In this document: in pieces, positions 6,073 to 24,750 of the stretch
Layout: every line of letters begins with the position of its first letter
How positions within the stretch are numbered: the first letter of the stretch is position 1
Assembly (NCBI GenBank): GCA_051652765.1
Contig: JBOFUV010000041.1
Coordinates: 1-24,750 of the forward strand
DNA length: 24,750 nucleotides
Origin: Microcoleaceae cyanobacterium
GTDB lineage: Bacteria > Cyanobacteriota > Cyanobacteriia > Cyanobacteriales > Microcoleaceae
Reading direction: 5' to 3'
Made by a program: the position numbers and the translations under genes
The notes under the pieces: model-generated
What the model was told of the DNA's origin: nothing
Seen by the model: the letters and a program-made list of their open reading frames with translations, nothing else
Database searches by the model: none

Positions 6073-7299
6073 TTAACGTTGAGCTGAGTCTTGCAGTTCT
6101 CCAGGGCGAACCGAGATCTGTTGGGTTTCACTGCCCCGTCTCACCGTAACCTTCAACGGCTGACCGATGCGGCTTTTCTCAACTAAAGCTTGTAACTGTT
6201 CCGCACTTTTTACCGCTGCGCCATCGATCTGAGTAATTACGTCTCCCCTTCGAACTCCTGCCGCTGCGGCGGGACTATTCGGAATCACCTGCATCACTAA
6301 CACTCCGTCCACTTCTGGAATCGTGAAAGGGGCATTTGGATCATCATTGAACTGCTTTGCGACCTCCGGAGTCAGGCTCAACATCCGAATCCCAATAAAT
6401 GGATGGGAAATCTTCTCTCCCCGAGCCAGTTGATCCTTGATTTCCTTAGCTTTGTCAATCGGAATTGCAAAACCAATACCTTGACCATCGGCCCGAATCG
6501 CTGTGTTGATGCCAATGACTTCACCGCGATCGCTCAATAAAGGCCCACCGGAGTTGCCAGGGTTAATCGCGGCATCCGTTTGAATGAAATCGAGGCGCTT
6601 GTCCGGAATCCCCACTTGGGCACTAGACCGATTCAGGGTGCTAACAATCCCCAGAGTTACAGTATTGTCCAGTCCCAAGGGATTACCTAGGGCGATCGCC
6701 CAATCCCCGACCTGAACTTGAGCTGAGTTCCCCAAGGGGGCCACAGGCAAATTGCTACCGTCAATCTTGACTACAGCCAGATCAGAGGGTTCATCGGAGC
6801 CTCGGACTTCTCCTTGAAATTGCCGTCCGTCTCGCAAGATTACCGTTACTTTGTCCGCTCCCTTGACCACATGGGCATTGGTTAGGATCATTCCGCTGCT
6901 ATCGACAATAAAGCCCGATCCTTGGCCCTGCTGACGATATTCTCGGGGCGCTTGGGACGTTCCCTCTTCCCCAAAAAACCGTCGAAAGAAGGGATCATCA
7001 AAAAAGGGATCAAGATCACGGGTAACGGTTCGTTCGGTGTCAATCCGCACAACGGCAGGCCCAACCTTATCAACGGCGGCGGCCACAAAATTTCGTACCG
7101 CTGGGTTAGTTGGTGCTACTGCAAGGGGTTCAGCAGCCTGAACGAGGGTTGCTGAACTGACTGGATTGTCAGCGCGAGCCGGGGACAGTTTTGGAAAAGC
7201 CCGCAAAGAAGTTAGGGTCAAACCAACACTGAGTAAAACAGTGACTAAATAACCACCCACTTGTCGTAGTGCAAAGGGTTTGCGCTCAGGCGTTCGCAT
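6073..7299 (-). CDS. hhoA: HhoA/HtrA (DegP-family) serine protease with one PDZ domain
   Basis: GSGFI, TNAHVV (His), SDLAVVKI (Asp), IQTDAAINPGNSGGPL (Ser), C-terminal PDZ (PNSPAAAAGVRRGDVI) and an N-terminal hydrophobic segment. The hhoA vs hhoB/htrA paralog assignment is not certain. Confidence 0.93.
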   Translation of the reverse strand: MRTPERKPFALRQVGGYLVTVLLSVGLTLTSLRAFPKLSPARADNPVSSATLVQAAEPLAVAPTNPAVRNFVAAAVDKVGPAVVRIDTERTVTRDLDPFFDDPFFRRFFGEEGTSQAPREYRQQGQGSGFIVDSSGMILTNAHVVKGADKVTVILRDGRQFQGEVRGSDEPSDLAVVKIDGSNLPVAPLGNSAQVQVGDWAIALGNPLGLDNTVTLGIVSTLNRSSAQVGIPDKRLDFIQTDAAINPGNSGGPLLSDRGEVIGINTAIRADGQGIGFAIPIDKAKEIKDQLARGEKISHPFIGIRMLSLTPEVAKQFNDDPNAPFTIPEVDGVLVMQVIPNSPAAAAGVRRGDVITQIDGAAVKSAEQLQALVEKSRIGQPLKVTVRRGSETQQISVRPGELQDSAQR

Positions 7300-7837: not shown

Positions 7838-8100
7838 AATTTTCATCTCCTTAAATTCGACAGTTAAGTTGCCTTCTGATATTAAGAATACTCAATCGGA
7901 CTATACTTGTGAATTCGGTTTTGAGACTGAATCAGGAGAAATAACCGTACCTATATCATGTTAGGTTGCGGGGTTATGCTGCTGCGGATTGCCCAAACTA
8001 GCTTTACGTCCTGAATCTTGAAATATACGCTGGAAATATACGCTGAAAACAGATCCTTAAAACACACTTTCAATTCAGATTCAATTCAGACTTGGATCGT

Positions 8101-9423
8101 TCATCCCGCTGGGTTCATTTGGGCCAAAAGCTTGACGACTTCCAATAGATCTGAACTTTGAACTGGAGCAGTTCTGGGTTTCTGAACGCCATTCAACGAT
8201 TCGGGTTGGTTCAAGCTCAGAAGATGCTGTTTCATTTCGTATAGTTGCCAAGCTCGTTCAGACAAGATTGACAGATCAAGATCGGGAGCCACCTGCAAAC
8301 GGATTAACAAAACTCCTTCTGACTGGGCTTCAAACGCTTGAATGGAGATGTTGTCCTGACCCCAATCTGCCTGCAAGATTTGGAAGGTAAGGAGGAATGC
8401 TTGCCAGTGAACACCGTCTTTGAATGCTAAGTTGAGGGTGGTTTCTGTGGGTTGAAACAGCTTAGTAAATTCCCCAGGGGCAAGGGTTTTATCCAGATCC
8501 CGTGGGCATCGTTCCTGCTGATCACCTTTCAGGTAAAGGTAGTCGCAGAGAATCCTATTCAGTTTAGTCTCCTGGTTAATTTGCCATGCTTCAATGCAGG
8601 CTCCGGTGAGGGTGACTGCGGTAAAGTTGGTTTCTAGCGCCTGCACCCCGGAGAGATCAGCCTCTCGCAAATTGGCCTGGGTTAAATCGGCTTGGCTCAA
8701 ATCAGCTTCTTGTAGATTCGCCTTCCAGAGATCGGCTTGGCTTAGGTTAGTTTGACTTAGATCAGTCTGTTGCAAGTTTGCGTTCCACAGATCGGCCCCT
8801 TGCAAATCAGCTTCTCGCAAGTCTGCGCCCCATAAATTTGTACCGATCAAGCTTGCTCCCCTCAAATCTGCCCGCCAGAGATAGGCTTCCTGTAGATCAA
8901 CGTCTCCGAGGTTCAGGCTGGCCCCATTGCCATTGATGATTTCCCAGACCAAGCGCCATTTTTCAGCAATTCGAGTGGCACTGTCCAGAGTTACCGCCTT
9001 AAGGTTGACCCCGCGTAGATCCGCTTGCCAGAGATTAGCGCCACAAAGATTTGCTTCGGTTAAGTCTGCACCCCGCAGGTCTGCTTCTCGCAGATCAGCC
9101 TCCCAGAAACTGGCTTTACCGCCATCAGCTCCCCGTAAGTCAGCTTTCCAAAGGGTTGTTCCACTCAGATCTGCGCCGGTGAGATTGGCTCCACTGAGAT
9201 CGGCCCCCCAAAGATTGGCTTCCCCGAGGTCAGCTTCTCGCAGATCGGCTCCCCACAGTTTGGCTCCCCAAAGATTGGCCTTCCAGAGATTGGCCCCAAT
9301 CAGATTTAAGCCCTGCAAATCAGCGGCAATCAGGTCGGGCTGGATGGCTTCATGGGTGGCCCGCCAGTGATTCCAAACTTCAATTCCTTGTTGCAATCGT
9401 GCAATGAGTTCTGCCTGTGCCAT
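8101..9423 (-). CDS. Pentapeptide-repeat protein with C-terminal non-repeat domain
   Basis: Many A(D/N)LXX repeats, N-terminal QGIEVWNHWR cap, TLTGACIEAWQI motif and GEFTKLFQ..FKDGVHWQAF tail. Confidence 0.92.
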   Translation of the reverse strand: MAQAELIARLQQGIEVWNHWRATHEAIQPDLIAADLQGLNLIGANLWKANLWGAKLWGADLREADLGEANLWGADLSGANLTGADLSGTTLWKADLRGADGGKASFWEADLREADLRGADLTEANLCGANLWQADLRGVNLKAVTLDSATRIAEKWRLVWEIINGNGASLNLGDVDLQEAYLWRADLRGASLIGTNLWGADLREADLQGADLWNANLQQTDLSQTNLSQADLWKANLQEADLSQADLTQANLREADLSGVQALETNFTAVTLTGACIEAWQINQETKLNRILCDYLYLKGDQQERCPRDLDKTLAPGEFTKLFQPTETTLNLAFKDGVHWQAFLLTFQILQADWGQDNISIQAFEAQSEGVLLIRLQVAPDLDLSILSERAWQLYEMKQHLLSLNQPESLNGVQKPRTAPVQSSDLLEVVKLLAQMNPAG

Positions 9424-9724: not shown

Positions 9725-10274
9725 GGCGTATTTGGCCAAAGCTAAACTTTTGGGGGTTTTTGGTAGGACTCTATTCTTCGACCTGTTTTAAAATTTGTAT
9801 TAAATTTAACTCAGTAACTTTTAAAACTACAGATTCTAAAAAAATTGGATCAAGAAATAGATCGGAAAAACTTGTGAATTTTAATCTAAAAGTCTATGAT
9901 AGAACCAAAGACAAGTAACTCTTGCTCGGAGAAACCATGAAAAATACGGTTTATAGACCCTCTTTTGACGTTTAAAGAAAGTATTTATTAGTCAAGACAG
10001 ATGGTTTATTTCTAGGTGTTATGGAGGTCATTTTCGGAGATTTGGAGAAGTGAATCCAGAGGATTAATACGGTTTTTTAAAAACTTTCAGGAAGTTACAA
10101 TCAAATCTCAGTAGAGAGATACAGTAGAAAAAGCACGGTAGAAACTTTGAGTCGGTTTTTTCTATTCGGGTGCATTTCGCAACACCAACAGCTCGAATAA
10201 TTGTCGTTCATTTGATGGAGGATAGTAGATTCATTCCCTGTCCTATCAGAGGCGAGTCAGCCCAAAATTTATCT

Positions 10275-11564
10275 ATGCTCACCCCATTAAGCACTGCTGC
10301 GCCGTACCCGATGCCAGTCAACCAAGCTGTTATGAATCAAGTGCCAATTCGTGAATTGACTCAAGAGTTAGAGACCCTCTGTCAACGTAGAACAACAGGA
10401 ACATTAGTTCTGAACACTGCCAGTCAGGAAGGCAAGCTGCATCTTGTCGAAGGTCAACTCCTTTACGTAACCAGTGACTTTCATCGAGTCAGGCGTTGGT
10501 ATCGGGCAACGAAGAAAAGTTGTCCGAATTGGAGACCTCAATCTGGACTGTTGTCCCTAGATTCTGAAACTCCCTGGGAATATCAGTTGCTCGATCTGGG
10601 GATTACCGATGAACAGTTAACCATTGCTCAGGCTAAGGCCGTTATGGGTCAAGTCGCCCTGGAAGTTTTGTTCTCAATCGCTGAACAAACAACAACGACC
10701 TATCGATTTGAGTCCTACACAGAGCCTGCTTTAGACGTTTATCCAGGACTGACCCTATCTCAGGACGATTGGCAACCTTTACTGACAAAAGTTGCCCATC
10801 TTCAATCCCAATGGCAAACTGCAGGTTTGGGGGGGGTTAATCCAATTCTGGCTCCAATCTTGCGAAAACAGGTTGAAGCCAAGTCACTTTCTACCTGGGA
10901 TAAGTATCTCAATGGCAAGTTTACCCTCTGGGATATCGCTGCTCGTTTAGGTAAGTCGGTCACCTCAGTCGCCCGTGCCCTCTTACCTTTAGTGAATAAG
11001 GGATTAGTACAGTTACGCACGGTACCGGATTTGCCCGATCCAGGATTTCAGTTGGCTCCGACAGGCCCAGATGGGAATTCGGGAGGAGCCGTTACATTTG
11101 CATCTTCTACCCCTGAAGAAGGATTAGAGGGTCTTGAGTTGGAGTTTGCTTCTCCTTCAGGCCCTGCCAATCAACCGCTGATTGCTTGTATTGATGATAG
11201 CCCTGTTGTGGCCCAAACCCTGAAGAATATTCTGGAGCCTGCTGGCTATCGTGTATTAGGGATTCAAGATCCAGTACAGGCTCTAGCCCAGATTGCCAAG
11301 CACAAGCCAGATTTAATCTTTCTCGATTTGGTTATGCCCCATGCGAATGGTTATACAGTCTGTCAATTTCTGCGAAACGCACCTCTATTTCGGAATACTC
11401 CGGTCATTATCTTGACCAGCCGAGACAACGTTGTTGATCGGAGTCGAACCATGTTGGCGGGCGCGTCGGGCTTCCTAGGGAAACCTCCTAAGCCAAAGGA
11501 GACCTTGAGAATGGTCAGTAAATATCTCTCTGCTTCAGCATCTTCTAAAAACTCCTCTTATTAA
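10275..11564 (+). CDS. pixG: PatA-family response regulator (PATAN + REC), PixG/TaxP-like
   Basis: N-terminal PATAN-like region (TGTLVL..HRVRRWYR..PWEYQLL) and C-terminal REC (IACIDDS, DLIFLDLVMP, IILTS, FLGKP). First gene of the che-like operon. Start uncertain (GTG 10170; ATG 10215/10275/10311/10332). Confidence 0.88.
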   Translation: MLTPLSTAAPYPMPVNQAVMNQVPIRELTQELETLCQRRTTGTLVLNTASQEGKLHLVEGQLLYVTSDFHRVRRWYRATKKSCPNWRPQSGLLSLDSETPWEYQLLDLGITDEQLTIAQAKAVMGQVALEVLFSIAEQTTTTYRFESYTEPALDVYPGLTLSQDDWQPLLTKVAHLQSQWQTAGLGGVNPILAPILRKQVEAKSLSTWDKYLNGKFTLWDIAARLGKSVTSVARALLPLVNKGLVQLRTVPDLPDPGFQLAPTGPDGNSGGAVTFASSTPEEGLEGLELEFASPSGPANQPLIACIDDSPVVAQTLKNILEPAGYRVLGIQDPVQALAQIAKHKPDLIFLDLVMPHANGYTVCQFLRNAPLFRNTPVIILTSRDNVVDRSRTMLAGASGFLGKPPKPKETLRMVSKYLSASASSKNSSY

Positions 11565-11581: not shown

Positions 11582-11623
11582 AGGCTAGAAAAATCAGGCT
11601 AGAAAAACCAGGCTAGAAAAACG
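11582..11623 (+). repeat. 14-bp tandem repeat x3 (AGGCTAGAAAAAyS)
   Basis: aggctagaaaaatc aggctagaaaaacc aggctagaaaaacg. Confidence 0.9.
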
Positions 11624-11700
11624 GGTCAAAAACCATTTGCAACGTAGCAATTCAATTGACGTTGAACCCAAATTTTAATATTAATAAAGGTGTTTTTACC

Positions 11701-12069
11701 ATGGCAAGCATATTAGTGGTAGAAGACAGTGCCACAGAGGCCAAGCTATTGACAGACTATCTACAAAAGTCGGGGTTTAAGGTGCTGAGTGTGACAACAG
11801 CAGAGGCTGCAAAAGCACTCCTAGAACAGCAAAGCTTTGATGCTATTTTGATTGATGTTGTTCTGCCAGGTCAAAGTGGATTTGGGCTGTGTCGGGAGTT
11901 AAAAAACCAGGAGAAAACGGCTCGAGTTCCGATTATTATTTGCTCTAGTAAAGCTGAAATAATTGATAAAACCTGGGGTATAAAACAAGGTGCATCTGTC
12001 TATCTCACAAAGCCTATTAATGGGCAAGAAATTGTGGAAACCCTTAACCAACTTATTTCTGCTTCATGA
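11701..12069 (+). CDS. pixH: CheY-like single-domain response regulator (PixH-like)
   Basis: MASILVVEDS..DAILIDVVLPGQSGF..IICSSK..WGIKQGA..YLTKP. ATG 11701 preferred over TTG 11656. Confidence 0.92.
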   Translation: MASILVVEDSATEAKLLTDYLQKSGFKVLSVTTAEAAKALLEQQSFDAILIDVVLPGQSGFGLCRELKNQEKTARVPIIICSSKAEIIDKTWGIKQGASVYLTKPINGQEIVETLNQLISAS

Positions 12070-12569
12070 TGAAAGCTCAATGTTCGCCCTCAATGGTTCA
12101 GTCCTTTCTCAGTGTTCGTCTAGGCCCTGAATTTCAGCTTCTCTTATCCACTCAACCGCTGCTTGAAATCCTCAATTTGAATCCTCGTCATCTTGTTTCA
12201 GTTCCGCAAATGCCTGCCTCTGTGGTTGGTGTTTGTACTTGGAAACAGGAGGTTTTATGGATCATTGATTTGGCAAATTTGTTGGGCTTAGGGTCTCAAT
12301 TGACCGCCAATGTCCTGACTTCCCATTGTTCTGTGCTCGTGATGAAGACTCAGAATGGAAACCTGGGTTTAATGGTCAACCAAGTGGGGCAAGTTGTTTC
12401 CTGCAACCCAGCTCAAATTCAGCCGATTTCTTCAGAATTTCAGTTCGTTAACTTAATCGGATTTCAAGAAAAACTGATGCGAGAGTTCTGGATTGATCCC
12501 GCCAATACCATCAACCCAATTCTGGAAGTTGAAACAGTCGTTCAATTTTTGAATTCGGCCTCTGCATAG
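12066..12569 (+). CDS. cheW: CheW-like adaptor (PixI-like)
   Basis: VPQMPASVVGVCTWKQEVLWIIDL..LGLMVNQV motifs; ATGA overlap with cheY; operon position. Confidence 0.88.
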   Translation: MMKAQCSPSMVQSFLSVRLGPEFQLLLSTQPLLEILNLNPRHLVSVPQMPASVVGVCTWKQEVLWIIDLANLLGLGSQLTANVLTSHCSVLVMKTQNGNLGLMVNQVGQVVSCNPAQIQPISSEFQFVNLIGFQEKLMREFWIDPANTINPILEVETVVQFLNSASA

Positions 12570-12654: not shown

Positions 12655-15600
12655 ATGTCTAACAACAATTCTTCCCTCCGGTTAACCATGACTGAGCCCA
12701 TGAACGAACCTATGCAATCAACTCCCATACATATTGAATCTGAAGTCCAGCCTCCCTTTACGGCTCAACCTCAAGCCCTTGGACTAAAAGCTAAAACGAC
12801 AGCCCTGGCCAGAGAGTTATCGGTATTGCGGCTCAATATTGACAGCCGAGTCAATCAACTCCAATCCTTGATTGAACGGGAAGGTGCCGCCGCAGAACGG
12901 GCCGAACTCCTGAATGAAATCACATCTGCCATGCGGGAATCCCTCAATCCGCAGAATATTTTTAGAACGGCGGTAGAACAAGCTCGGGTTGCCTTGCAGT
13001 CAGACCGGGTTGCGGTTTACCAGTTTGATCCCCAATGGCAGGGAACCATTGTTTCGGAGTCTGTTGATCCTCAATGGCCGTCAGCTCTGGGGGCAATGAT
13101 TGCCGATCCCTGTTTTGCGGATCGCTACGTTGAGTTTTATCAAGCTGGACGGGTCAAGGCGACCTCGGACATCTACAACGCGGGGTTGACAGAATGCCAT
13201 TTGAATCAGCTCGAACCCTTTAAGGTCAGAGCAAACTTAGTGGCTCCGATTGTCGCTAACCAACAACTGATGGGGCTGTTCATTGCTCACCAATGTTCGG
13301 GGTCGCGAGTTTGGCTAGAGCCTGAGATTGAGTTTTTCCGTCAATTGGCGGTGCAGCTCGGTTACGCCTTGGATCAAGCTCTGTTACTCCAACAGCAGCA
13401 AGTGGCAACCCGTCAAGCTCAGCTTCTCAACCACATTACAGCCCAGATTCGTCAGTCTCTGGATGTGGATAACATCTTGGTAACCACGGTCGAAGAAGCT
13501 CGAGCCGCCCTAGAGTGCGATCGCGTCATCGTCTATGAATTTGATGCCAAGTGGCAAGGAACGATCATTGCCGAATCTGTAGATGCCAAATGGCCGAACG
13601 CATTGGGGGCAATGATTGCCGATCCTTGCTTTGCCCAACGCTACATTCAACCCTATTTGCGCGGTCGAGTTCGGGCCACTGAAGACATTGAGAATGCTGG
13701 ACTGACAGAGTGCTACCTGAATCAGCTCAGACCCTTTGAGGTGAAAGCCAATCTGGTGGCTCCAATTGTGGTGAATCAAAAACTGATGGGGCTGCTGATT
13801 GCCCATCAATGTTCTGCCCCCCGAGCTTGGACAGAACTAGAGATTGACCTAATGCGTCAGGTGGGGATTCAACTGGGCTACACCCTGGATCAAGCCTACT
13901 TGCTAAAACAGCAGCAAGCCGCCGCCCGACAAGCCCGATCCCTGAACGAGATCACAACCAAACTGCGAAACTTTAGCCAACCGCAGGAATTGTTTGAGCT
14001 GATTGTGGAAGAGGCTAAGGTCGTTCTTCAATGCGATCGCCTGCTGATTTACCAGTTGGATGAAGATTGGATGGGGACAGTAGTTGCTGAAGCCGTCAGT
14101 CGAGGCTGGTCAAAAACTTTGGGTCGGCAACTCAAAGATCCTTGTATTCCCAGTCATTTCGGCAAACTGTATCTGCGGGGGCGGGTTAGCAAAATCGAAA
14201 ATGTGAATGAAGATGGCTTAGAAGCCTGTCACGTTGAAATGCTGGAATCCTATGAAGCCAAAGCCAATATGGTCGCTCCCATCGTGGCAGAGAATCGATT
14301 GAACGCATTGTTGATTGCCCAGCAGTGTTCGGGGCCGCGAATTTGGCAAGAATCAGAAATTAGCTTTATCCAACAGTTGGCAACCCAGGTGAGTTTGGCT
14401 CTGGATCAGGTGATCCTGCTGCAAAAACAGGAATCGGCGGCAGAACAGGCGCGGCGTTTGAACCGAACCAGTTCGCGGATTCGGGAGTCGCTAGTGTACA
14501 GCGATATCCTGGATGCCACTGTTGAAGAAACCCATAGTGCTCTCAATGCTGATCGAGTGGTTGTTTATCAGTTTGATGCCAATTGGCAAGGAACAATTGT
14601 GGCTGAGTCCGTCAGCGCAGGGTTTCCGGAGGCATTGGGGGCAAACATTGATGACCCTTGTTTTGCTCAGAATTATGTCAAGCCTTACCTCAAAGGCCGA
14701 GTCCAAGCCACCGCAGATATCTACGAAGCCAACCTGACCGAGTGTTACTTAAAACAGCTCGAACCCTTTGAAGTCCGGGCCAATCTAGTGGCCCCAATTA
14801 TCACCAACCAAAAACTTCATGGGTTACTCATTGCCCATCAGTGTTCTGGCCCCCGCAAGTGGTCAAATCAAGACATTGATCTGCTCCGACAGATTGCGGT
14901 TCAGGTGGGCTATGCCTTGGATCAATCTTCTTTGCTGGAGCAACAACGGATCGCCACCCAACAGGCGTGCTGGCTGAGCGAAACCGGGTCTCGGATTCGA
15001 GAGTCCTTAGACTTTGATCAAATTTTGCAGACCGCCGTTCAGGAATTATTACCTTTGATGCAGGGCGACCAAGTCCTCGTCCATGAATTTAACAATGATT
15101 GGCAGAGTCGCATTCGTTCATCGGCTTCAAAGCTAGAACTAGACCTGAAGTTTGGGGCTCCAAAACCTACAACAAAGCTCGCCAATTATGGAGACTTCGA
15201 TCCAGAACTGGCAGGATTCCTGGCTATCCATGCCGAATTTTCCCCAACGTTCTCAGCTGAAACAGTTAAGTTGTATCGTCAAGGACAAGTTCACATTCTC
15301 AGCGATATTGCACAGGCTGATTTAACCCAATTCCAAATTGAGCAGTTGCACCAACAGCATGTCAAAGCCAGTCTGAGCGCACCAATCTTTATTAACCAGA
15401 ATCTCTATGGCTTGATCGAGGTGCAGCAATGTTCTCAGCCCAGAACTTGGATCAATGCGGAAACTGAACTGCTCAAACAAGTCGCATTGCAAATCGGCTA
15501 CGCTCTGGAACAGGCCCAACTCCTGCAACAGGTACAACAGGCTCGCCAAATTGCGGAACAAGTGTCCACAGAACAACAGCAACAAAAGCAAGTTCTCGAA

Positions 15601-16578
15601 CATCAAATCGAGACATTCTTAGGTGATATTGAAAACTCCTTTGAGGGAGATTTAACAGTCCGAGCCCGAGTCACCGAAGGGGTTATGGGAACAGTTGCAG
15701 ACTTTTTCAATGCCACCATTGAAAATCTCCAACAGCTTGTAGTTCAAGTCACCTCTGCGGCCAACGTGGTAAACGGGACTGCCCAGAATAGTGAAGCTGC
15801 GGTCAAGAACCTTTCACAAGCAGCAGTCAATCAAGCAGAGGCGATCGCCAACGCCCTCAGCCAGATTCAAACCATGGCCAGTGCTACCCAAACCGTTGCT
15901 CAAAGCGCCAAAGCCGCCGAAACTCAAGTGCTGAATGCCAGTCAAATCCTGCAACAGAGTGATGTGGCCATGAATCGCACCGTTGAAGGGATTACGGCGA
16001 TTCAGAAGACAGTTTATGCCACGGCTCGCCGCGTGAAAAATTTGGGGGATGCCTCCAAGAAAATTTCTCGCGTGGTGCAACTGATTAGCGAATTTGCCAA
16101 CCAAACCCACATTCTGGCCCTGAATGCCTCGGTAGAAACCACCCGAACCAATCAGGAAGACCTGGGATTTGCCACGGTTGCCAGCGAAGTTCGGAGTCTG
16201 GCGGAGCAATCGGCGACAGCAACCCAAGAAATTGAACAAATTGTCGAGGAAATTCAAACTGAAACCCAGGAGTTAATTCAAGCCATGAAAGTCGGCATGA
16301 AACGAGTCATTCTCGGAACCACCCTCGTGAATGAAACTCGCCAAACTTTAACGAACTTAGTGGAGGTCAGTCAGCACATTCGCGTCCAGGTGGAAGACAT
16401 TGCCCAATCTGCCACTTCTCAAGCCCAAACCTCTAGCGAATTATCCGCTACGGTGGAAGCAGTCGCCGCGATCGCCCATTCAACCTCTGAATATTCAGTC
16501 AAAGTCGCGGAGTCTTTTAATCAACTGCTGACCGTTGCCGGAGATTTGCAAAAGGGCGTTGCTCAATTCAAGGCTTAG
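12655..16578 (+). CDS. pixJ: Soluble multi-GAF cyanobacteriochrome methyl-accepting chemotaxis protein (PixJ-like)
   Basis: Five GAFs at a 172-aa period (DPCF151/CH181, DPCF323/CY353, DPCIP495/CH525, DPCF667/CY697, degenerate SPTF863/FQ893), then a HAMP-like GDLTVRA..GTVADFFNATIENL segment and an MCP signalling domain. No transmembrane segment visible. Confidence 0.93.
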   Translation: MSNNNSSLRLTMTEPMNEPMQSTPIHIESEVQPPFTAQPQALGLKAKTTALARELSVLRLNIDSRVNQLQSLIEREGAAAERAELLNEITSAMRESLNPQNIFRTAVEQARVALQSDRVAVYQFDPQWQGTIVSESVDPQWPSALGAMIADPCFADRYVEFYQAGRVKATSDIYNAGLTECHLNQLEPFKVRANLVAPIVANQQLMGLFIAHQCSGSRVWLEPEIEFFRQLAVQLGYALDQALLLQQQQVATRQAQLLNHITAQIRQSLDVDNILVTTVEEARAALECDRVIVYEFDAKWQGTIIAESVDAKWPNALGAMIADPCFAQRYIQPYLRGRVRATEDIENAGLTECYLNQLRPFEVKANLVAPIVVNQKLMGLLIAHQCSAPRAWTELEIDLMRQVGIQLGYTLDQAYLLKQQQAAARQARSLNEITTKLRNFSQPQELFELIVEEAKVVLQCDRLLIYQLDEDWMGTVVAEAVSRGWSKTLGRQLKDPCIPSHFGKLYLRGRVSKIENVNEDGLEACHVEMLESYEAKANMVAPIVAENRLNALLIAQQCSGPRIWQESEISFIQQLATQVSLALDQVILLQKQESAAEQARRLNRTSSRIRESLVYSDILDATVEETHSALNADRVVVYQFDANWQGTIVAESVSAGFPEALGANIDDPCFAQNYVKPYLKGRVQATADIYEANLTECYLKQLEPFEVRANLVAPIITNQKLHGLLIAHQCSGPRKWSNQDIDLLRQIAVQVGYALDQSSLLEQQRIATQQACWLSETGSRIRESLDFDQILQTAVQELLPLMQGDQVLVHEFNNDWQSRIRSSASKLELDLKFGAPKPTTKLANYGDFDPELAGFLAIHAEFSPTFSAETVKLYRQGQVHILSDIAQADLTQFQIEQLHQQHVKASLSAPIFINQNLYGLIEVQQCSQPRTWINAETELLKQVALQIGYALEQAQLLQQVQQARQIAEQVSTEQQQQKQVLEHQIETFLGDIENSFEGDLTVRARVTEGVMGTVADFFNATIENLQQLVVQVTSAANVVNGTAQNSEAAVKNLSQAAVNQAEAIANALSQIQTMASATQTVAQSAKAAETQVLNASQILQQSDVAMNRTVEGITAIQKTVYATARRVKNLGDASKKISRVVQLISEFANQTHILALNASVETTRTNQEDLGFATVASEVRSLAEQSATATQEIEQIVEEIQTETQELIQAMKVGMKRVILGTTLVNETRQTLTNLVEVSQHIRVQVEDIAQSATSQAQTSSELSATVEAVAAIAHSTSEYSVKVAESFNQLLTVAGDLQKGVAQFKA

Positions 16579-16751: not shown

Positions 16752-16833
16752 TCTGATGTTTAAGTCTGATGTTTAAGTCTGATGTTTAAGTTAGCGTGAA
16801 TCCTGAGTTTGATTTTCCTTCTTAAACATCAGA
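16752..16833. repeat. 13-bp tandem x3 plus one inverted copy upstream of cheA
   Basis: TCTGATGTTTAAG at 16752, 16765 and 16778; CTTAAACATCAGA at 16821-16833. Confidence 0.92.
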
Positions 16834-16869: not shown

Positions 16870-19800
16870 ATGACCCTTGCCACCATCGACGATCAAGCCT
16901 ACGAATTTTTTGTTCAGGAGTCCCTAGAGTTACTCCAGATTCTAGAGAAAGGGCTCATGACCTTGAGCCAAGACCACGACCTGGCAAAACTGCACAGCTT
17001 AATGCGGGCCGCTCACTCGATCAAGGGTGGGGCAGCCTGCGTGGGACTGATGGAGATTCAACAAATTGCTCACCATTTGGAAAATGGAATTCGGGTGCTG
17101 TACGCAGAAGACACGGTATTTGATACCGAGCTAGAAAATCTACTGCTGCAAGCCTTTGACCATCTGCGATCGCCCTTAGTCGAACAAATTGAAACGGGTC
17201 ATTGCAATGCAATCCAAGCATTAAAACATTCTCAGCCAATTTTTGCTCAACTCGAAGTCAAAGTGAACCGTCCCTTGGAGGATGCAGCGGAGTTACCTGA
17301 AGTGCCCATGGAAACGGATATGACTCTGTTTCTATTTGAGGAGGAAATCTCTGTTGGCCTCAGGCGCTGGGGCGCTTTGCTGTCAAACCCAAAACAATCG
17401 ATGCAGAAAATTCAGGAAGAACTGAAGAGTCAAGCAGAGGTGTTTGGCACCTTGGGCAAGATGTTGAGCCTGTCGGGATGGAGCGCGATCGCTGATGCTG
17501 CTCTGCAAGCCTTGGAAACCAATCCGCAGTTTTATCCCGAAATTGGCAAGCTTGCTCTTGCAGACTTCCTCGTTGGACAGGAGGCCGTTTTGGCTGGGGA
17601 TCGGGAACAGGGAGGCCAACCCAATGAGCTGTTACTAGAACTCGCCAAAACAGCAACGACGGTCAAACCCGATATTTATTCAACGATTACCCAATACAGG
17701 CAACAAGTTGAGCAGCAGCAGGCAAACCCTACCCAGCCCCGAGAGAACACACTAGAAACTAAAGTCTTAGAAACTAAAGCGTTCAAGACTGAAACCTTGG
17801 CAGATAAAACTCAAGAATCCGCCTCTCTCTTACTGCCGAATTCTTTCAACTTTGAGCGTTCAGAATTGGAGCCTGCAGAATTTGAATTGCACCCTGTTGA
17901 ACCCCTACTACCAAATGCTCAACAGAGTCCTCAACTCACTACTCAGCCCAGTATTCAGGCTACAGATTTAAACCAAAATCTCCAAGAAAACTGGCAAGAA
18001 GATTCACAAGATTTACACCTGAATTCACGGCAAGACCTACAAGAAGACTTTCAAGAAAACTTTCAAGAAGACTTTCATAAAGGTTCACATGAAGGTTTAG
18101 CTAAAAACTTAGAAGAAGACTTGCAGGAAGTCTTGCAAGAAGACGTACAAGAAGACATAGAAGAAGATTTATGGGAATTTTCGCAACACACTTTACAGCA
18201 AGTTTCCACATTAAATACTCAGCAATTGTCCCAGGTTGAAACTCGGGTTTCATCTGAAATCCTAGATGGAACCTTGATAAATTCTTCGAGTTTGGTGGGT
18301 CAAGATTCTGCAGCTAATCTTCAAGATAACCTTCAAGAAAATCTTGAAAAGAGTTCTGAAGAAAACTCTGAAGCAAGCCATAAAACTCTTCCTCAAGACA
18401 GCGTTGAAGACAAGTCAAAATCTCCCAACATTGTGCTTGCTCAAAGTTCTCCTACGGCTCAACTAGCTTTGGGAGTTCGGATTGATCTGAGCCATCTCGA
18501 TTTGATTAATGACTCAGTGGGGGAACTAGTGACTCAGGACAACAGCTTCTTTCTACAAAATCAAACTGCCCAAACTGTAGTAGAAACTCTGGAAAAAAAT
18601 CGAGTCAAGCTGCGTCAATATTTAGCTAGACTACAATCTCAATTGGGCAAAAATTCCTCAAAAAATCTAGAAAAAACAATTCACAATTCCTTAGAAGAAT
18701 TAGATCAAATTCAGGAGTCAGTCTATGACTTAAAAGTCCTCAATTTACAAAATCGACAGGTCACAAAAAAAAGACAGCAAACGCTACAAAAAATCCAGAA
18801 ATCTCTGGCAGAAACTCGTATGGTTTCAGTCATGGCCGTATTAAATCGATTTCCCCGAATGGTGCGAGATCTGGGAATCCAAAATCAAAAACAAGTTGAA
18901 CTAGAGCTAAAAGGAAAGGAAACCCTATTAGATAAAGCTGTTCTAGAAAAACTGTATGATCCATTAGTTCATTTAATTCGGAATGCATTTGATCATGGCA
19001 TTGAGCCTCCGGAAATTCGGATGCAAGCCGGAAAGCCTCCAGTTGGTAAGATTACAATTTATACCTATCAACAGGGTAACTACACGTATCTGGAAATTCA
19101 GGATGATGGTCAGGGAATTAACTTGGATAAAATTCGCCATAAAGCGGTTGAGAAGCAACTGGTTTCAAGTGAAGATGTCAGACGCTTGTCCAAAGATCAG
19201 TTATATGAATTGCTGTTCTATCCAGACTTTTCGACTCAGAATCAAGTCAGTTATTTGTCAGGAAGAGGGGTTGGGTTAGAAGCAGTTCGTCATCAAATCG
19301 AACTTTTGAAAGGAAGTATTTCTATCCAGTCAGAAGTTGGTCAGGGAACAAAATTTATCCTCCGACTTCCCTGGATGCTAACGATTGCTAAATTATTGGT
19401 ATTTGAGAGTCAAAATTCCTTGTTTGCCATTCCTTTGGACACCCTGGCGGGAGTTGTTTCTGCATCATTGGATGAACTTAAAGGTCAAGATGGACAGGAA
19501 AAATATGATTGGTATGGACAATCTATCCCATTGGTTCATTCAATCCTTGTGGATTATCAGTATTCCAATCCTTATAATCAGACCTCCATCCAAACTAATC
19601 CTTCTCAAAAAGATAATTCTCAGAATAATGGTCAGAAAAACAATGCTCAGAAAAAACTAACACTTCTATTAATTTCCCAGGGGTTAGATACAGTTGCAAT
19701 CAAGATTGATCGAGTGATCATGGAGCAAAACTTGATGATTAAACCCTTTAACAAAATTCTGAAAGTGCCTGCCTATTTGTATGGTTGCACAACCCTAGGA

Positions 19801-20325
19801 GATGGTCGCCTTGTTCCTGTGATTGATAGTCCTGAACTGTTAAATTATTGGTCTCAGCAGGATCAACTTGTCTCTGGAAAGTTGGATTTAGTTCCGCCTC
19901 AGGTTCGACAAACCTCTGCCAGCTTACCCACTATTCTGATTATTGATGATTCAATCACAACTCGTCATTCTTTGGGGTTAACTTTGCAAAAAGCAGGCTA
20001 TCAAATTCTACAGGCTCAGAACGGACAAGAGGGATTAATACAGCTTCAAAAACATCCTCAAATTCAGATCGTCATCTGTGATTTAGAAATGCCTGAGATG
20101 AATGGCTTTGAATTTTTAAGTCACTGCCGTCGTCAGTTTTCCTCAGAACAACTTCCAGTTTTGATTCTGACTTCTCGCAATAATGAACGCCATCGTAAAC
20201 TTGCTCACGAGCTGGGGTCAAATGAATATTTAACTAAGCCTTGGATTGAACCCGATTTAATTGAGACATTGAACAATTATCGAGTTAAAGATCGTAAAGT
20301 TAGCAATGGTAAAGTCCATCATTAA
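16870..20325 (+). CDS. cheA: Hybrid CheA histidine kinase (Hpt, dimerisation, HATPase, CheW, REC), PixL-like
   Basis: LMRAAHSIKGGA (Hpt His), LYDPLVHLIRNAFDHGIE, DDGQGI, SGRGVGL, GQGTKF, CheW domain (GCTTLGDGRLVPVID) and REC (IIDDS..ICDLEMP..LTSR..YLTKP). Confidence 0.95.
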   Translation: MTLATIDDQAYEFFVQESLELLQILEKGLMTLSQDHDLAKLHSLMRAAHSIKGGAACVGLMEIQQIAHHLENGIRVLYAEDTVFDTELENLLLQAFDHLRSPLVEQIETGHCNAIQALKHSQPIFAQLEVKVNRPLEDAAELPEVPMETDMTLFLFEEEISVGLRRWGALLSNPKQSMQKIQEELKSQAEVFGTLGKMLSLSGWSAIADAALQALETNPQFYPEIGKLALADFLVGQEAVLAGDREQGGQPNELLLELAKTATTVKPDIYSTITQYRQQVEQQQANPTQPRENTLETKVLETKAFKTETLADKTQESASLLLPNSFNFERSELEPAEFELHPVEPLLPNAQQSPQLTTQPSIQATDLNQNLQENWQEDSQDLHLNSRQDLQEDFQENFQEDFHKGSHEGLAKNLEEDLQEVLQEDVQEDIEEDLWEFSQHTLQQVSTLNTQQLSQVETRVSSEILDGTLINSSSLVGQDSAANLQDNLQENLEKSSEENSEASHKTLPQDSVEDKSKSPNIVLAQSSPTAQLALGVRIDLSHLDLINDSVGELVTQDNSFFLQNQTAQTVVETLEKNRVKLRQYLARLQSQLGKNSSKNLEKTIHNSLEELDQIQESVYDLKVLNLQNRQVTKKRQQTLQKIQKSLAETRMVSVMAVLNRFPRMVRDLGIQNQKQVELELKGKETLLDKAVLEKLYDPLVHLIRNAFDHGIEPPEIRMQAGKPPVGKITIYTYQQGNYTYLEIQDDGQGINLDKIRHKAVEKQLVSSEDVRRLSKDQLYELLFYPDFSTQNQVSYLSGRGVGLEAVRHQIELLKGSISIQSEVGQGTKFILRLPWMLTIAKLLVFESQNSLFAIPLDTLAGVVSASLDELKGQDGQEKYDWYGQSIPLVHSILVDYQYSNPYNQTSIQTNPSQKDNSQNNGQKNNAQKKLTLLLISQGLDTVAIKIDRVIMEQNLMIKPFNKILKVPAYLYGCTTLGDGRLVPVIDSPELLNYWSQQDQLVSGKLDLVPPQVRQTSASLPTILIIDDSITTRHSLGLTLQKAGYQILQAQNGQEGLIQLQKHPQIQIVICDLEMPEMNGFEFLSHCRRQFSSEQLPVLILTSRNNERHRKLAHELGSNEYLTKPWIEPDLIETLNNYRVKDRKVSNGKVHH

Positions 20326-20359: not shown

Positions 20360-20827
20360 TTAGTTAAACAGTTCCAAACATTGCTGAAACCATTGTTGAG
20401 TACTATCATTAACTTCAGTTTGATTGAGAGGATGGGGAAATTCCTCAAGACTTAAGGCTTCAATGGCAACATTCATCTCCCATCCAGACTCTGTTTCCCC
20501 GATCATCGGATAGGCATAGGTGAGGTTTTGAATGCGATCGCCTGCAATTTCATAGTCTCCTTTGAAACACGCTCCGATATCAGAATTTTGCAGATAAACT
20601 AATCCCCGAACTTGATTGTTTTTATCCGTTTGAAATAGGATGTACTCAGCCCCAACTTGGGCCGCTTTTGGCACATTCCCGCGAAAGCTCAGGCTTGTGT
20701 CAGCACGGGTTACAGTTGGCTTTGTTGGAAGTCCCTGGGCCTGCTGAGGAACCACCGTTAATAGACTGAGGAGAGTGATTGCACCAGTGATTAAAGCGCT
20801 AGATTTCCGGAGATTCGATCGGTTCAT
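20360..20827 (-). CDS. Conserved cyanobacterial hypothetical protein with signal peptide
   Basis: From ATG 20827: MNRSNLRKSSALITGAITLLSLLTVVPQQAQG (Sec-like signal); QVGAEYILFQ..VRGLVY..ACFKG core; C-terminal Cys. Confidence 0.75.
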   Translation of the reverse strand: MNRSNLRKSSALITGAITLLSLLTVVPQQAQGLPTKPTVTRADTSLSFRGNVPKAAQVGAEYILFQTDKNNQVRGLVYLQNSDIGACFKGDYEIAGDRIQNLTYAYPMIGETESGWEMNVAIEALSLEEFPHPLNQTEVNDSTQQWFQQCLELFN

Positions 20828-21101
20828 GGTTGTACCCTCTTTCAATTCGAACTTCACAGTTCGCAAATGTTAACGGCAATAAAATGCTCAAAACTTGTCT
20901 GGAAAAGTCCCTAAGAGCAGAGTCTTTGCCAAGTTGAGCAAGAGAATAAAAACCGTGATACTTTCAACCACAGTTTCTATTCCTAGAATTCCCGATAAAT
21001 ACCATCAGATCATCTGTCGCCAAGGATAAATTCCTGCCTAAGTGATCCTAGGTTTTGTCACTGAAAATTGCTGTAAATCCTGCGCTTAATCACACCTGCG
21101 C

Positions 21102-21683
21102 TTAATCACAGTACAAAGTTTCACGGGTATTCCGTCCAGTTGTTGGGTTTGTTCCACTCGCAACCTTGCAAAGCTTCAGCAACAGATCTTTGCGAAACAA
21201 CACATCTGTAAAATCTGCCCCTTCAATATTGGCATCGGTAAAGTCAGCATTATAAGCATAGGCTCCCTCCAAGACTGCATTCTTGAGATTGGCTCGAAGC
21301 AGGCGAGCAGCATCTAGGGTCGCATTGGTCAGGTCTGCTCCTTCTAGGTTCGTATCCTGCATTTTTGCTCCAAACAGGCTCACTCCTCGCAGGTTTGCCC
21401 CACTAAAATTACTGCCCTGAAGACTAGCAAAGTTGAATTCCGAATCGGTTAACACTTGCCCAGAAAAGTTAGAATTCAGCATTGTGCGCTTTTCGTAGTT
21501 CTCTGCCTGAACCGGTAAAGTCTCAAACCCGCTCAAGCCAAAGAACAGAATCAGCACTAGAGCTAAGCCAATGATTCTGAAGCGTTGAGGCATCCTGAGG
21601 GTTATCCTCTGGCCTGAGTTTAACGAATTGTGACGAAGATTTTGTCGAAGATTTCGTCGAAAATCTCGCGCTAAGACTTTCAT
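21102..21683 (-). CDS. Exported/thylakoid-lumen pentapeptide-repeat protein
   Basis: Hydrophobic signal ending PVQA, pentapeptide repeats, and C-terminal LCKVASGTNPTTGRNTRETLYC two-Cys motif. Alternative start ATG 21593. Confidence 0.9.
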   Translation of the reverse strand: MKVLARDFRRNLRQNLRHNSLNSGQRITLRMPQRFRIIGLALVLILFFGLSGFETLPVQAENYEKRTMLNSNFSGQVLTDSEFNFASLQGSNFSGANLRGVSLFGAKMQDTNLEGADLTNATLDAARLLRANLKNAVLEGAYAYNADFTDANIEGADFTDVLFRKDLLLKLCKVASGTNPTTGRNTRETLYCD

Positions 21684-22098: not shown

Positions 22099-22566
22099 TT
22101 GAAACCGCCATTGAAAAAGTCTTTTAAACGACTCAATATTCTTACAAAAGATGAAAACTTTGTCCTTGCACTCGAGCAAGTTCAAGTTATTGTCTCCAAG
22201 ATCCTCTCCCTAGCAATGGTTGCGTTAATCCTTGCAACAACAGCACATTTGATTTTATTTCTGGGTAAGGAATTGTTATTTGATCCGTCTTTACTTTTTA
22301 AAGGTAAGCTCTTTGAGGTCTTTGGACTTTTTCTTAATCTTCTCATTGCCTTAGAAATTCTGGAGAATATCTCATCCTACCTGACTAACCATGTGATTCA
22401 GGTTGAATTGGTGATTGTGACTTCCCTGATCGCAGTTTCTCGGAAAATTATTATTCTAGATTTAGAGAAAACTACTGGACTAGATATCATTGGATTGGCG
22501 CTAGCAATACTTTCTCTTTCTATCAGTTATTGGATTATTCGGAGGGCATCAAGTCATCATGAGTAA
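22099..22566 (+). CDS. Phosphate-starvation-inducible PsiE-family membrane protein
   Basis: Four hydrophobic helices; FGLFLNLLIALEILENI..VELVIVTSLIAVSRKIIILD motif. TTG start (22099 or 22111). Confidence 0.88.
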   Translation: MKPPLKKSFKRLNILTKDENFVLALEQVQVIVSKILSLAMVALILATTAHLILFLGKELLFDPSLLFKGKLFEVFGLFLNLLIALEILENISSYLTNHVIQVELVIVTSLIAVSRKIIILDLEKTTGLDIIGLALAILSLSISYWIIRRASSHHE

Positions 22567-22631
22567 CTTCAAGCCAGTAACTTCAAGCCAGTAACTTCAA
22601 GCCAGTAACTTTAAGTCAGTAACTTTAAGTT
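22562..22631 (+). repeat. 14-bp tandem repeat x5 spanning the PsiE stop codon
   Basis: AGTAACTTCAAGCC x3, AGTAACTTTAAGTC, AGTAACTTTAAGTT. Confidence 0.95.
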
Positions 22632-22649: not shown

Positions 22650-23189
22650 ATGACAGATCATTCTAAAACAATACATTCCGAAACAGAACACTTTGCAACA
22701 GAACACTTTGAATTCGAAGCAGATTTTGTTGAGTCTCTACGCTGCATTCCAATGAATGTTCGTTATAAGCTAGACACCTGTGGCATCAAACTAAAGCTAG
22801 AGCATTGGCATCAGTTTAGTCATGAAGATCGGCAACACTTAGTCGAACAATTGGTCGAAACACCAGAGTCAGTTCAAGCCTATCGAAACCAACTACAGAA
22901 CTTAGCAGAACGTTGCAGTAAGGCTCCACTGCAAGATTTGCCCATCGATCCCCATCCTCCTTGGAAAAACCAAGAAGAAGTTCCAGAAAGCGTTCAACAA
23001 AAAGCAATGGAACTAGATGTTGAAGTCACTTTGGAAGACTGGAAAAACTTAACTTTCATTCAACGTTTTGCCCTAATCAAACTGAGTCGCCCCAGCCATG
23101 AAAATCGTAATTTCCTACCTGCAATGCAGGAGTTTAGACTAAAGCCTAACCTAATCAAAACTAATCAATTAAGCCCTTTGGAGGATTAA
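22650..23189 (+). CDS. narM: Nitrate reductase-associated protein NarM
   Basis: [58 protein letters not shown] family signature. Confidence 0.9.
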
Positions 23190-23808
23190 CTTCAATTCGG
23201 TGCTGCTCGAAATCAACAACAGGAACTATCTCTTTTACAAATGGGATTAAAACAGTCTGTTTGCGGTCAGGTTTCCGTTTGATCTTGGCTTTTTTGCGAG
23301 AGGAAGTTTGAGCAACTTTGGTCTCTAAGTTAGACTCCAAATCAGACGGATTGAATTGAGGAATCTCTAATACTTCGGGTTCAATTTGATGGGCCAATTC
23401 CACCTCTAAAAGGTTATTCCCCGCAGGAATCACATTGATCACCTTGCCAATCACTTCTCCAGTCACTTGATTCCAAACCTCTAAATCAATCAAGTCAATC
23501 ACGTAAAATTCATCCTCCTCCAGGTGAGGGCGATCGCTCTCTGTCACAAATAGCTGACTGCCTTGCAGGGCTTCGGCTTGATTTCGATCTTCAATTCCAG
23601 CAAGCTGGACAACAAACATCGTTTTCCCTGGAATACAGCGTCCTTGAACTAATTCAACAGGCTGTGGCTCCAGTTGACCCGGTTTTTGCAGCCAGCGCCA
23701 CCCGGGTTCTAAAAATCGCTCTGGAAAGTCTGTGCTGGGCAGAACCCTAACTTCCCCTTTTAATCCTTGTGCTGCAACAATTTGACCAATCTCAATCCAT
23801 TCAGGCAT
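23161..23808 (-). CDS. rimM: 16S rRNA processing / ribosome maturation factor RimM
   Basis: [76 protein letters not shown] 23808 preferred (alternative 23832). Confidence 0.96.
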
Positions 23809-23888
23809 GATATGATTTCTACGTTTTAGCATTCATTAACCAACAAATTCGTGAAGCATCACCCTCACATTTTGCGCTGCTTTCATCT

Positions 23889-24750
23889 ATGAATATTACA
23901 ATTCTATCTGCGATCGCTATTGTTTTTCTTCCTAGCCATCCCATTCTTGCTTCCAATTCCCTGATATCGGCACAGAATAAAGTTCAGCAACAAGACACTT
24001 CAGTCACAAATGAAGTGCAAAGTCACATTCGCGCCGAAGTCCAGCAAACCTTTCATGCTACCTTTACGGTTCTCAGTCTGTTGTTAGTTTTGTTGCTCTT
24101 TTTACCCACAATTACAGCGATCGCGGCCTGGTTTCTGTTAGCTAAACTGGCTCAAAAATCAGCCTTGGCCCAGCAAGAAATTGAAAGTTTGAAAATAGAT
24201 GTCCTATCTCAACTTGAAACATTGCTAGATGACGCTAAAGCAGTTTTATTAACGGCTCAGCTTCCACCTGTCATTTCAGAAGATATTTTCCCAGAAACAA
24301 ATGGTCACTCACACATTTTACAGCTTGATTTAGTTCAAATTCTTTCTCAAGCTCTTGAACCAGATGTTGAACAGGAGATTGAAGAAAACCTTGAATCAAA
24401 TCTTGCTCAAGCTGACTGTAATCAAGCCAAATTATCAGGGGACTCTCCGTCAGATTTACTATCAGAATCTGTGCAGTTGAACCCTGCTCAGCCTGAACCT
24501 TCAAAATTGGCAAGAGATTATGTATTGCAAGCAGAAAAGTTCTTTCTGTCTAATCAGTTAGAAGCAGCTATTGATGCCTATAATCAAGCTATAAAGTTTG
24601 ACCCCGATAGTCCTGAAACCTGGAACAATCGAGGTGTTGTTTTGATTAAACTACAGCGATATCACGAAGCAGTTGCATCCTATGAACAAGCTATTCAAAG
24701 GCGCACAGACTATGCAGATGCTTGGAACAATCGAGGTGTAGCCTTAGGAA
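23889..24750 (+). CDS. Membrane-anchored TPR-repeat protein (partial, runs off right edge)
   Basis: Manual translation: MNITILSAIAIVFLPSHPILA.. TM segment VLSLLLVLLLFLPTITAIAAWFLL.. TPRs AIDAYNQAIKFDPDSPETWNNRGVVL, AVASYEQAIQRRTDYADAWNNRGVAL. Not in the ORF track because there is no stop in the window. Confidence 0.9.
   Translation, partial: MNITILSAIAIVFLPSHPILASNSLISAQNKVQQQDTSVTNEVQSHIRAEVQQTFHATFTVLSLLLVLLLFLPTITAIAAWFLLAKLAQKSALAQQEIESLKIDVLSQLETLLDDAKAVLLTAQLPPVISEDIFPETNGHSHILQLDLVQILSQALEPDVEQEIEENLESNLAQADCNQAKLSGDSPSDLLSESVQLNPAQPEPSKLARDYVLQAEKFFLSNQLEAAIDAYNQAIKFDPDSPETWNNRGVVLIKLQRYHEAVASYEQAIQRRTDYADAWNNRGVALG

Follow-up and report, generated by a model that had tools for sequence, protein, structure and literature searches.

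A soluble five-GAF cyanobacteriochrome taxis receptor of Microcoleaceae with a DPCIP motif in a domain of probable DXCF descent

Cyanobacteriochrome GAF domains fused to a C-terminal MCP region make up several described taxis receptors, among them PixJSe of Synechococcus elongatus UTEX 3055 and PtxD (NpF2164) of Nostoc punctiforme. PixJSe has, like the protein presented here, five GAF domains and an MCP region; it is described as driving both positive and negative phototaxis (PMC7332365, PMC8794177, PMC11181946), and the direction of phototaxis is reported to be reversed in its single-GAF mutants (PMC11181946). PtxD is likewise a multi-GAF cyanobacteriochrome-MCP of a filamentous host, accompanied by CheY, CheW and CheA genes, for which seven GAF domains, six colours and a requirement in phototaxis are given (PMC5812497). 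Synechocystis PixJ1, described with two membrane helices and two GAF domains of which only the second carries bilin (PMC5812497), and TePixJ are blue/green receptors of the DXCF type, a family characterised in the cited work by PCB-to-PVB isomerisation, a reversible linkage at C10 and a blue-absorbing dark state (bioRxiv 2020.12.27.424465; PMC11284453).

Here, we report a five-GAF receptor encoded in a stretch of 24,750 nucleotides (the window) from a Microcoleaceae cyanobacterium. It shares with receptors of the PixJ/PtxD type the fusion of cyanobacteriochrome GAF domains to a C-terminal MCP and a cluster of genes for a PatA-type regulator, CheY, CheW, the MCP and a CheA with receiver (Table 1), in an order that matches the Synechocystis tax1 cluster as described (PMC5812497). 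An earlier note on this DNA had read the protein as a multi-GAF dual-Cys cyanobacteriochrome-MCP taxis receptor; this reading holds, and the gene sits in a PixGHIJL-like operon. The DUF4388 of the PatA/PixG-like gene is what we take to be the PATAN region. The N-terminal transmembrane helices and HAMP domain of PixJ proper (PixJ1, TePixJ and PixJSe) are not part of the receptor: no membrane helix was found (highest 19-residue hydropathy 1.46, against 2.1–2.5 in membrane-anchored relatives), and Pfam returned no HAMP match. By analogy, the receptor presumably works like PixJSe or PtxD. Short tandem repeats occupy five intergenic positions of the window, two of them within the operon. A scan for promoters and terminators stayed at chance level (9 against 13.7; 10 against 13.0).

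Table 1. Coordinates of genes, receptor domains and repeats in the window.
Feature	Position	Strand	Basis	Remarks
Large protein running off the window	1-5805	-		DUF4347, SdrD B-like, four GEVED matches
Trypsin-PDZ protease	6073-7299
Tandem repeat	8020-8049			13-16 bases, intergenic
Pentapeptide-repeat gene	8101..9423	-	Pfam
PatA/PixG-like regulator	10170..11564	+	Pfam	DUF4388, receiver; start uncertain: GTG 10170 or ATG 10215, 10275, 10311
Tandem repeat	11582-11622			13-16 bases, intergenic
CheY/PixH-like single receiver	11656..12069	+	Pfam	Likely start ATG 11701
CheW/PixI	12066..12569	+	Pfam
Five-GAF cyanobacteriochrome-MCP (PixJ/PtxD-like)	12655..16578	+	ORF, Pfam	1307 aa
GAF1	12898..13380	+		DPCFA / Cys-His; Cys153 at 13111, Cys181 at 13195; typical DXCF pocket
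GAF2	13414..13896	+		DPCFA / Cys-Tyr; Cys325 at 13627, Cys353 at 13711; TePixJ GAF is best structure match
GAF3	13930..14412	+		DPCIP / Cys-His; Cys497 at 14143, Cys525 at 14227; Gln556 replaces conserved beta6 His
GAF4	14446..14928	+		DPCFA / Cys-Tyr; Cys669 at 14659, Cys697 at 14743
GAF5	14962..15516	+		Degenerate; residues 770-954
Linker and MCP signalling region	15517..16578	+		Pfam MCPsignal at 16003-16473
Tandem repeat	16752-16791			13-16 bases, intergenic
CheA/PixL	16870..20325	+	Pfam	Hpt, HATPase, CheW, receiver
Repeat in long acidic linker of CheA	18032-18171			12-base low-complexity repeat, 11.7 copies
168-aa ORF	20360-20866			No Pfam match
Tandem repeat	21079-21110			13-16 bases, intergenic
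Pentapeptide protein	21102-21683
PsiE	22099-22566
Tandem repeat	22562-22629			13-16 bases, intergenic
Nitrate reductase-associated protein	22650-23189
RimM	23161-23832
TPR protein	23889-24749

Pfam recognises five GAF stretches in the receptor and an MCPsignal match at residues 1117-1273. The motif map of the open reading frame pairs DPCFA at residue 151 with C181-H, DPCFA at 323 with C353-Y, DPCIP at 495 with C525-H and DPCFA at 667 with C697-Y, at spacings of 172, 172 and 172 and with no indels in GAF1-4. The motif series, the exact period of 172 residues, the two bilin-related cysteines in each of GAF1-4 and the cysteine-less fifth domain had all been proposed in the earlier note and were found as stated, and the extent given for the array, 12940..15520, needs only a slightly earlier start at about 12898. 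GAF1, GAF2 and GAF4 are 61–66% identical to one another and GAF3 is 42–45% identical to these three. At the DNA level the third-position identity between repeats is only 35–45%, and the repeats are therefore old. Recent repeat expansion and gene conversion with a paralogue on contig C85 were also considered and left no sign (fourfold-site identity 24–40%, with these synonymous sites saturated).

The five-GAF layout itself is widespread. A homologue search with the GAF region as query matched 4364 of 8000 scored candidates. Among the best 120 of these 4364, proteins of about 1300 amino acids prevailed; their GAF regions reach 62% identity to the query, and their source records name Limnoraphis, Okeania, Trichodesmium, Dapis, Hormoscilla and Microcoleaceae. 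This family shares length, domain order, spacing and operon with the window receptor. For comparison we used the 61 of the best 120 matches that have five GAF domains and 1270-1360 amino acids. The period of 172 is real but not special to the window protein, since it makes up 108 of the 125 motif-to-motif intervals listed for these 61 relatives (top eight classes). Of the 81 genomes examined from the window's family, 37 had the MCP type, and 14 held at least two matches at 58% identity or more (counted from the table); the GAF architecture was checked in 20 loci. The top matches from S. elongatus, P0003 and P0004, are 44–45% identical over the GAF region. P0004 has membrane helices, HAMP and five uniform DPCFR/CH domains that are 67–89% alike, whereas the domains of the soluble window protein are heterogeneous, and a quick tree places it in an MCP clade separate from the PixJSe type.

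Novelty of the architecture cannot be upheld: PtxD with its six colours and the five-GAF PixJSe are published, and 87 further proteins among those fetched pair an xxCIP domain with a two-Cys DXCF domain, some of them (e.g. P0295) having both CY and CH domains. What is particular to the window receptor is its exact string of four motifs, found in one of 364 proteins and absent from all other family members fetched. No functional study of the soluble family or of this motif string was found in the literature covered, which excludes most subscription journals. Recurrent variants occur in relatives (e.g. P0046, P0074; P0020, P0028; P0023, P0044; P0097, P0108), namely DXCRF/CH at GAF3, DFCLA/CQ at GAF4, SKCFK/CY with a beta6 Asn at GAF4 and xPCFP/CH at GAF5. 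An EPRVT/CH domain is found in six-GAF proteins of Picosynechococcus and Limnothrix, and at L028:4738-8634 (- strand; G029:C87) lies another five-GAF MCP paralogue, the third, in which four GAF domains are degenerate and near which no che genes were detected.

The DPCIP at residues 495-499 of GAF3 is identical to the Asp-X-Cys-Ile-Pro motif of the DXCIP cyanobacteriochromes, which are known to us through reviews, and GAF3 had been assigned to that lineage on this ground. DXCIP domains are described without the canonical cysteine (PMC5578081; bioRxiv 2022.09.22.509050), and the latter source warns that motifs are unreliable family labels. In contrast to these descriptions the canonical cysteine is kept in GAF3 (Cys525-His526). 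DXCIP members retaining it may be among those described by Fushimi et al. 2016. Our survey of 1447 domains from 364 proteins yielded 93 other xxCIP domains, 91 of which lack the canonical cysteine. GAF3 is 34–48% identical to the other xxCIP domains, against 55–61% to the third GAF domains of five-GAF relatives. In a tree of 68 rows it lies inside the clade of positional GAF3 domains (100/97), and also in a mixture-model tree (99/92), with DPCIF/CH and DXCRF/CH domains as neighbours; the nearest third GAF domains of the family are DPCIF/CH (P0063, P0064). Forcing GAF3 together with DXCIP was rejected by the AU test, with motif columns removed, both under LG+G4 with 9 of the 18 DXCIP rows (p 0.0015) and under the mixture model with 7 main-clade rows (p 0.0018). 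These DXCIP references are motif-defined database domains instead of characterised proteins and form two groups in the mixture-model tree, and the long outgroup row P0089_g3 was excluded from the AU runs. Identities, trees and AU tests together reject an origin of GAF3 from the DXCIP lineage through a domain swap. The assignment to DXCIP is thus not supported; the comparisons indicate that GAF3 is a diverged DXCF orthologue with a convergent DPCIP motif, and that the receptor is probably not a DXCIP-containing one. The green-absorbing 15Z dark state given for DXCIP domains, with the bilin attached through the second cysteine, is not transferable to GAF3, as the domain appears to lie outside that lineage. 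In PtxD, as far as it can be compared by its descriptions, two domains carry a second cysteine (PMC5812497), and g2/g3 are of the insert-Cys type (PMC5240096); here, all four Cys-bearing domains of the window receptor appear to be of DXCF descent.

The DPCIP motif seems easy to reach, since Ile at +3 and Pro at +4 recur in two-Cys domains (13 and 58 domains, respectively, in the first 206 proteins). Closer relatives with DPCIP and the canonical cysteine were absent among the homologue-search matches listed and the best 150 representatives. P0241 and P0256 also combine a CIP motif with the canonical cysteine; these and P0301 and P0305 are multi-GAF proteins with DRCIL/DRCIP/DRCVP and Cys-Tyr domains. 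DNA patterns of fixed spacing, which overlook domains with indels, gave 24 matches in genome_contigs with only 2 GAF domains (histidine kinases of another lineage), 30 matches in metagenome_contigs with 0 GAF domains, and five further matches with 0 GAF domains in 400 genomes of the phylum, a sample largely of small-genome relatives outside the window's class. The PAS-GAF histidine kinases at L055:1512-4073 (+ strand) and L061:3117-6593 (- strand), with DECIP/CH and DDCIP/CH, represent a separate origin of the CIP motif with the canonical cysteine kept, in another lineage.

With regard to the chromophore pockets, the DXCF motif and the canonical cysteine are found at TePixJ spacing in GAF1, GAF2 and GAF4, and D492, C494, R507, C522 and N535 of the TePixJ pocket have counterparts in all of GAF1-4. 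GAF1, GAF2 and GAF4 retain the Asp, both Cys, Tyr+11, Arg, Asn and the beta6 His; of the 29 columns near the pocket, 4 in GAF2, 3 in GAF4 and 14 in GAF3 deviate from GAF1. GAF3 retains the Asp, both Cys, Tyr+11, Arg, His and Asn, and in the alignment H498 and H523 of TePixJ also have counterparts. The beta6 His, which probably has a role at the D-ring, is present in 560 of 583 two-Cys domains and is a Gln in GAF3. Further substitutions in GAF3 relative to TePixJ are Met for Q526 and Phe for W499, a residue described as bonding the B-ring propionate (PMC6955287).

The residue after the canonical cysteine was correctly held to be a tuning position: in the AM1_1499g1 scaffold, which belongs to another DXCF lineage, exchange of His for Tyr makes C10 ligation possible, as reported in bioRxiv 2020.12.27.424465. 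That CH and CY would mark different colours in this receptor is not borne out by the near-identity of the pockets of GAF1, GAF2 and GAF4. Both states are mixed within 42 of the 61 five-GAF relatives listed, and the His/Tyr state varies between orthologues at one and the same GAF position. Since TePixJ is described as ligating C10 while carrying His (PMC6955287), the swap need not alter colour in this lineage; GAF1 may still differ from GAF2 and GAF4, by analogy with the other lineage, where His-to-Tyr alters the photocycle. At Cys+8 and beta2, positions mapped from red/green-like domains of our own set, GAF1, GAF2 and GAF4 have Phe and Ile and GAF3 has Tyr and Val, and TePixJ differs from the former three in having Leu at Cys+8. 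The teal-DXCF group, with its trapped-twist photoproduct, is characterised by Phe at beta2 and/or helix alpha4, the cited text leaving unspecified which Phe is needed, and the common Phe at Cys+8 may blue-shift the photoproducts of GAF1, GAF2 and GAF4 alike (PMC5240096).

GAF5 has lost both cysteines, the His after the canonical one, the Arg and the Asn, and is longer by about 24 residues, with an insertion at about 15154-15234. Both cysteines are also absent from GAF5 in 17 of the 61 five-GAF relatives listed, and GAF5 descends from the xPCFP/CH fifth GAF of the soluble five-GAF family. In an AlphaFold2 model of GAF3-5, built from a 20-row alignment, the insertion is disordered (pLDDT <50 at protein residues 834-860). 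The mean pLDDT of the model is 82.9 and its pTM only 0.55, so that the packing between domains is unsure. TePixJ was the top structure match (E 2e-45), and a model domain superimposes on TePixJ 4fof with an rmsd of 1.3 over 153 columns. Continuous helices of 44-45 residues (141-184, 313-357) connect successive GAF domains in the model, and such a helical spine would fit additive signalling along the receptor.

The genome harbours five MCP genes, one ferredoxin-dependent bilin reductase and a PilB-like ATPase, whose match (E 1.5e-157) stayed below the cut-off of the model. A second PatA-CheY-CheW-five-GAF MCP-CheA operon lies at G000:C85:1-7336 (- strand), its CheA running past the contig end, and the motifs of its receptor (P0007) are DPCFA with CH/CH/CH/CY, then VTCFP/CH. 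A third che-like operon is found on contig C52 (95595-105664) and contains an MCP without GAF match. CheR gave one match only, near a separate MCP on another contig (G000:C21:4956-8741). In the loci of five relatives (L021, L024, L026, L031, L033), a homologue of the pentapeptide-repeat gene is found next to an operon of this type; it serves as a marker of the operon paralogue B, to which the window copy belongs. For GAF1-5 in order, copy B is 72/73/41/57/43% identical to the congener's orthologue and copy A 84/80/86/84/79%, a gap that is inflated by a swap of GAF3-5 in the congener's B orthologue. Among B-set receptors the middle and last GAF domains are the most variable. These comparisons suggest that the operon was duplicated and that the window receptor belongs to copy B, which evolves fast, the copy on C85 being the more conserved.

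The congener's orthologue, P0055 (L021:5605-9537; G001:C42), is syntenic and 75% identical in the MCP region. Its GAF1-2 and MCP parts cluster with those of the window protein (100/99 each) and its GAF3-5 part with the DXCRF group (100/100), and its identity to the window protein shifts near residues 420 and 950. A constraint of P0055 with the window protein was rejected for GAF3-5 (p 2e-12). For the MCP, joining P0055 to the DXCRF group was rejected (p 0.00025); for GAF1-2 it was not (p 0.097). The congener's orthologue appears to have exchanged its GAF3-5 block, in one direction or the other; a chimeric assembly in the congener is a possible source of the same pattern.

Taken together, we give about even chances to a receptor in which three DXCF sensors resemble one another, a home-grown domain has been retuned and the last domain is a spacer that does not sense. 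GAF1, GAF2 and GAF4 would be similar blue/green(-teal) dual-Cys bilin sensors, in which, from established DXCF chemistry, the canonical cysteine is expected to attach the bilin and the second to add reversibly at C10, giving a blue-absorbing dark state. GAF3 likely still binds bilin with its tuning shifted, and the cysteine-less GAF5 would act as a spacer. Photoswitching of every GAF is predicted from the modelled helices to add along one helical spine to the MCP. By analogy with Synechocystis Tax1, for which a PixL-PixG-PilB1 mechanism is described (PMC11181946), the MCP would set CheA activity, the PatA-type regulator act on PilB and CheY drain phosphate. The array would then serve chiefly as an amplified sensor of the blue/green ratio, and no more than one of its channels would be clearly distinct.

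It is somewhat doubtful, yet possible, that GAF3 is decaying like GAF5 after relaxed selection on the duplicated copy B, which would leave a plain blue/green sensor of three working domains and two spacers. The GAF3 branch is long (0.32, against 0.07–0.20 for GAF1, GAF2 and GAF4), other B-type receptors have lost Cys in GAF1 (DPNFV/SY), the B copy was not seen in congener G002, and the Gln at beta6 and the Phe for W499 would be consistent with decay too, as would the absence of both cysteines from GAF5 in this receptor and in 17 of the 61 relatives. Against decay, GAF3 keeps both Cys and the Asp, Tyr, Arg, His and Asn at about 60% identity to its nearest kin, and related third GAF domains look retuned, as they carry derived motifs that are conserved (two cases of DPCIF; DXCR[F/L]-type in 10 of the 61 listed). 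Both cysteines are retained at GAF position 3 in 59 of these 61 relatives.

A separate question concerns the output and is compatible with every spectral model. We find it unlikely that the system responds to light quality by adjusting gliding reversal rate, sensitivity or aggregation while direction comes from elsewhere, e.g. from the non-GAF MCP operon on C52. The missing membrane anchor and that third operon are in keeping with such a role; photophobotaxis is reported to be dampened by Phormidium PixJ (PMC13383048), Synechocystis Tax1 is described as flipping orientation and not setting polarity (PMC11181946), and in some species PixJ modulates movement instead of sensing direction (PMC13383048, PMC11181946). 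The reported loss of phototaxis in ptxD and pixJSe mutants (PMC5812497, PMC8794177) speaks against it.

Rather less probable is a joint reading in which copy B serves as a colour cassette open to retuning, next to a copy A that is conserved and blue/green. GAF3 would here have gained the DXCIP motif independently with the canonical cysteine kept and a new photocycle, a step by which second-Cys-only attachment can arise; in-register repeats of 172 residues would permit swaps of entire GAF blocks between genera, and two receptors on the same pilus motor would compare different colours.

Finally, it is quite improbable that the CH, CY and DPCIP domains amount to three or more distinct photocycles, with a green-absorbing dark state in GAF3 and the kinase driven in opposite directions: the motifs do differ, C10 ligation can be switched through His/Tyr (bioRxiv 2020.12.27.424465), opposing GAF effects are suggested for PixJSe (PMC7332365, PMC11181946) and Ile-Pro may alter chemistry regardless of ancestry, but the AU tests place GAF3 outside the DXCIP lineage, the pockets of GAF1, GAF2 and GAF4 are nearly identical, CH and CY interchange freely among orthologues, and TePixJ with His already ligates C10 (PMC6955287).

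The concept of multi-colour taxis receptors is unchanged by these findings. They show a five-letter motif to be an unsafe basis for assigning lineage or colour. GAF3 uncouples the Ile-Pro motif from the loss of the canonical cysteine and would allow a direct test of the role of Ile-Pro, and domains with the recurrent motifs of the relatives (DXCRF, DFCLA/CQ) can be expressed at low cost and might extend the range of bilin photoswitches. The soluble five-GAF family, found in Trichodesmium, Okeania and other marine filamentous genera, offers natural series with variation at single positions in an unchanged frame.
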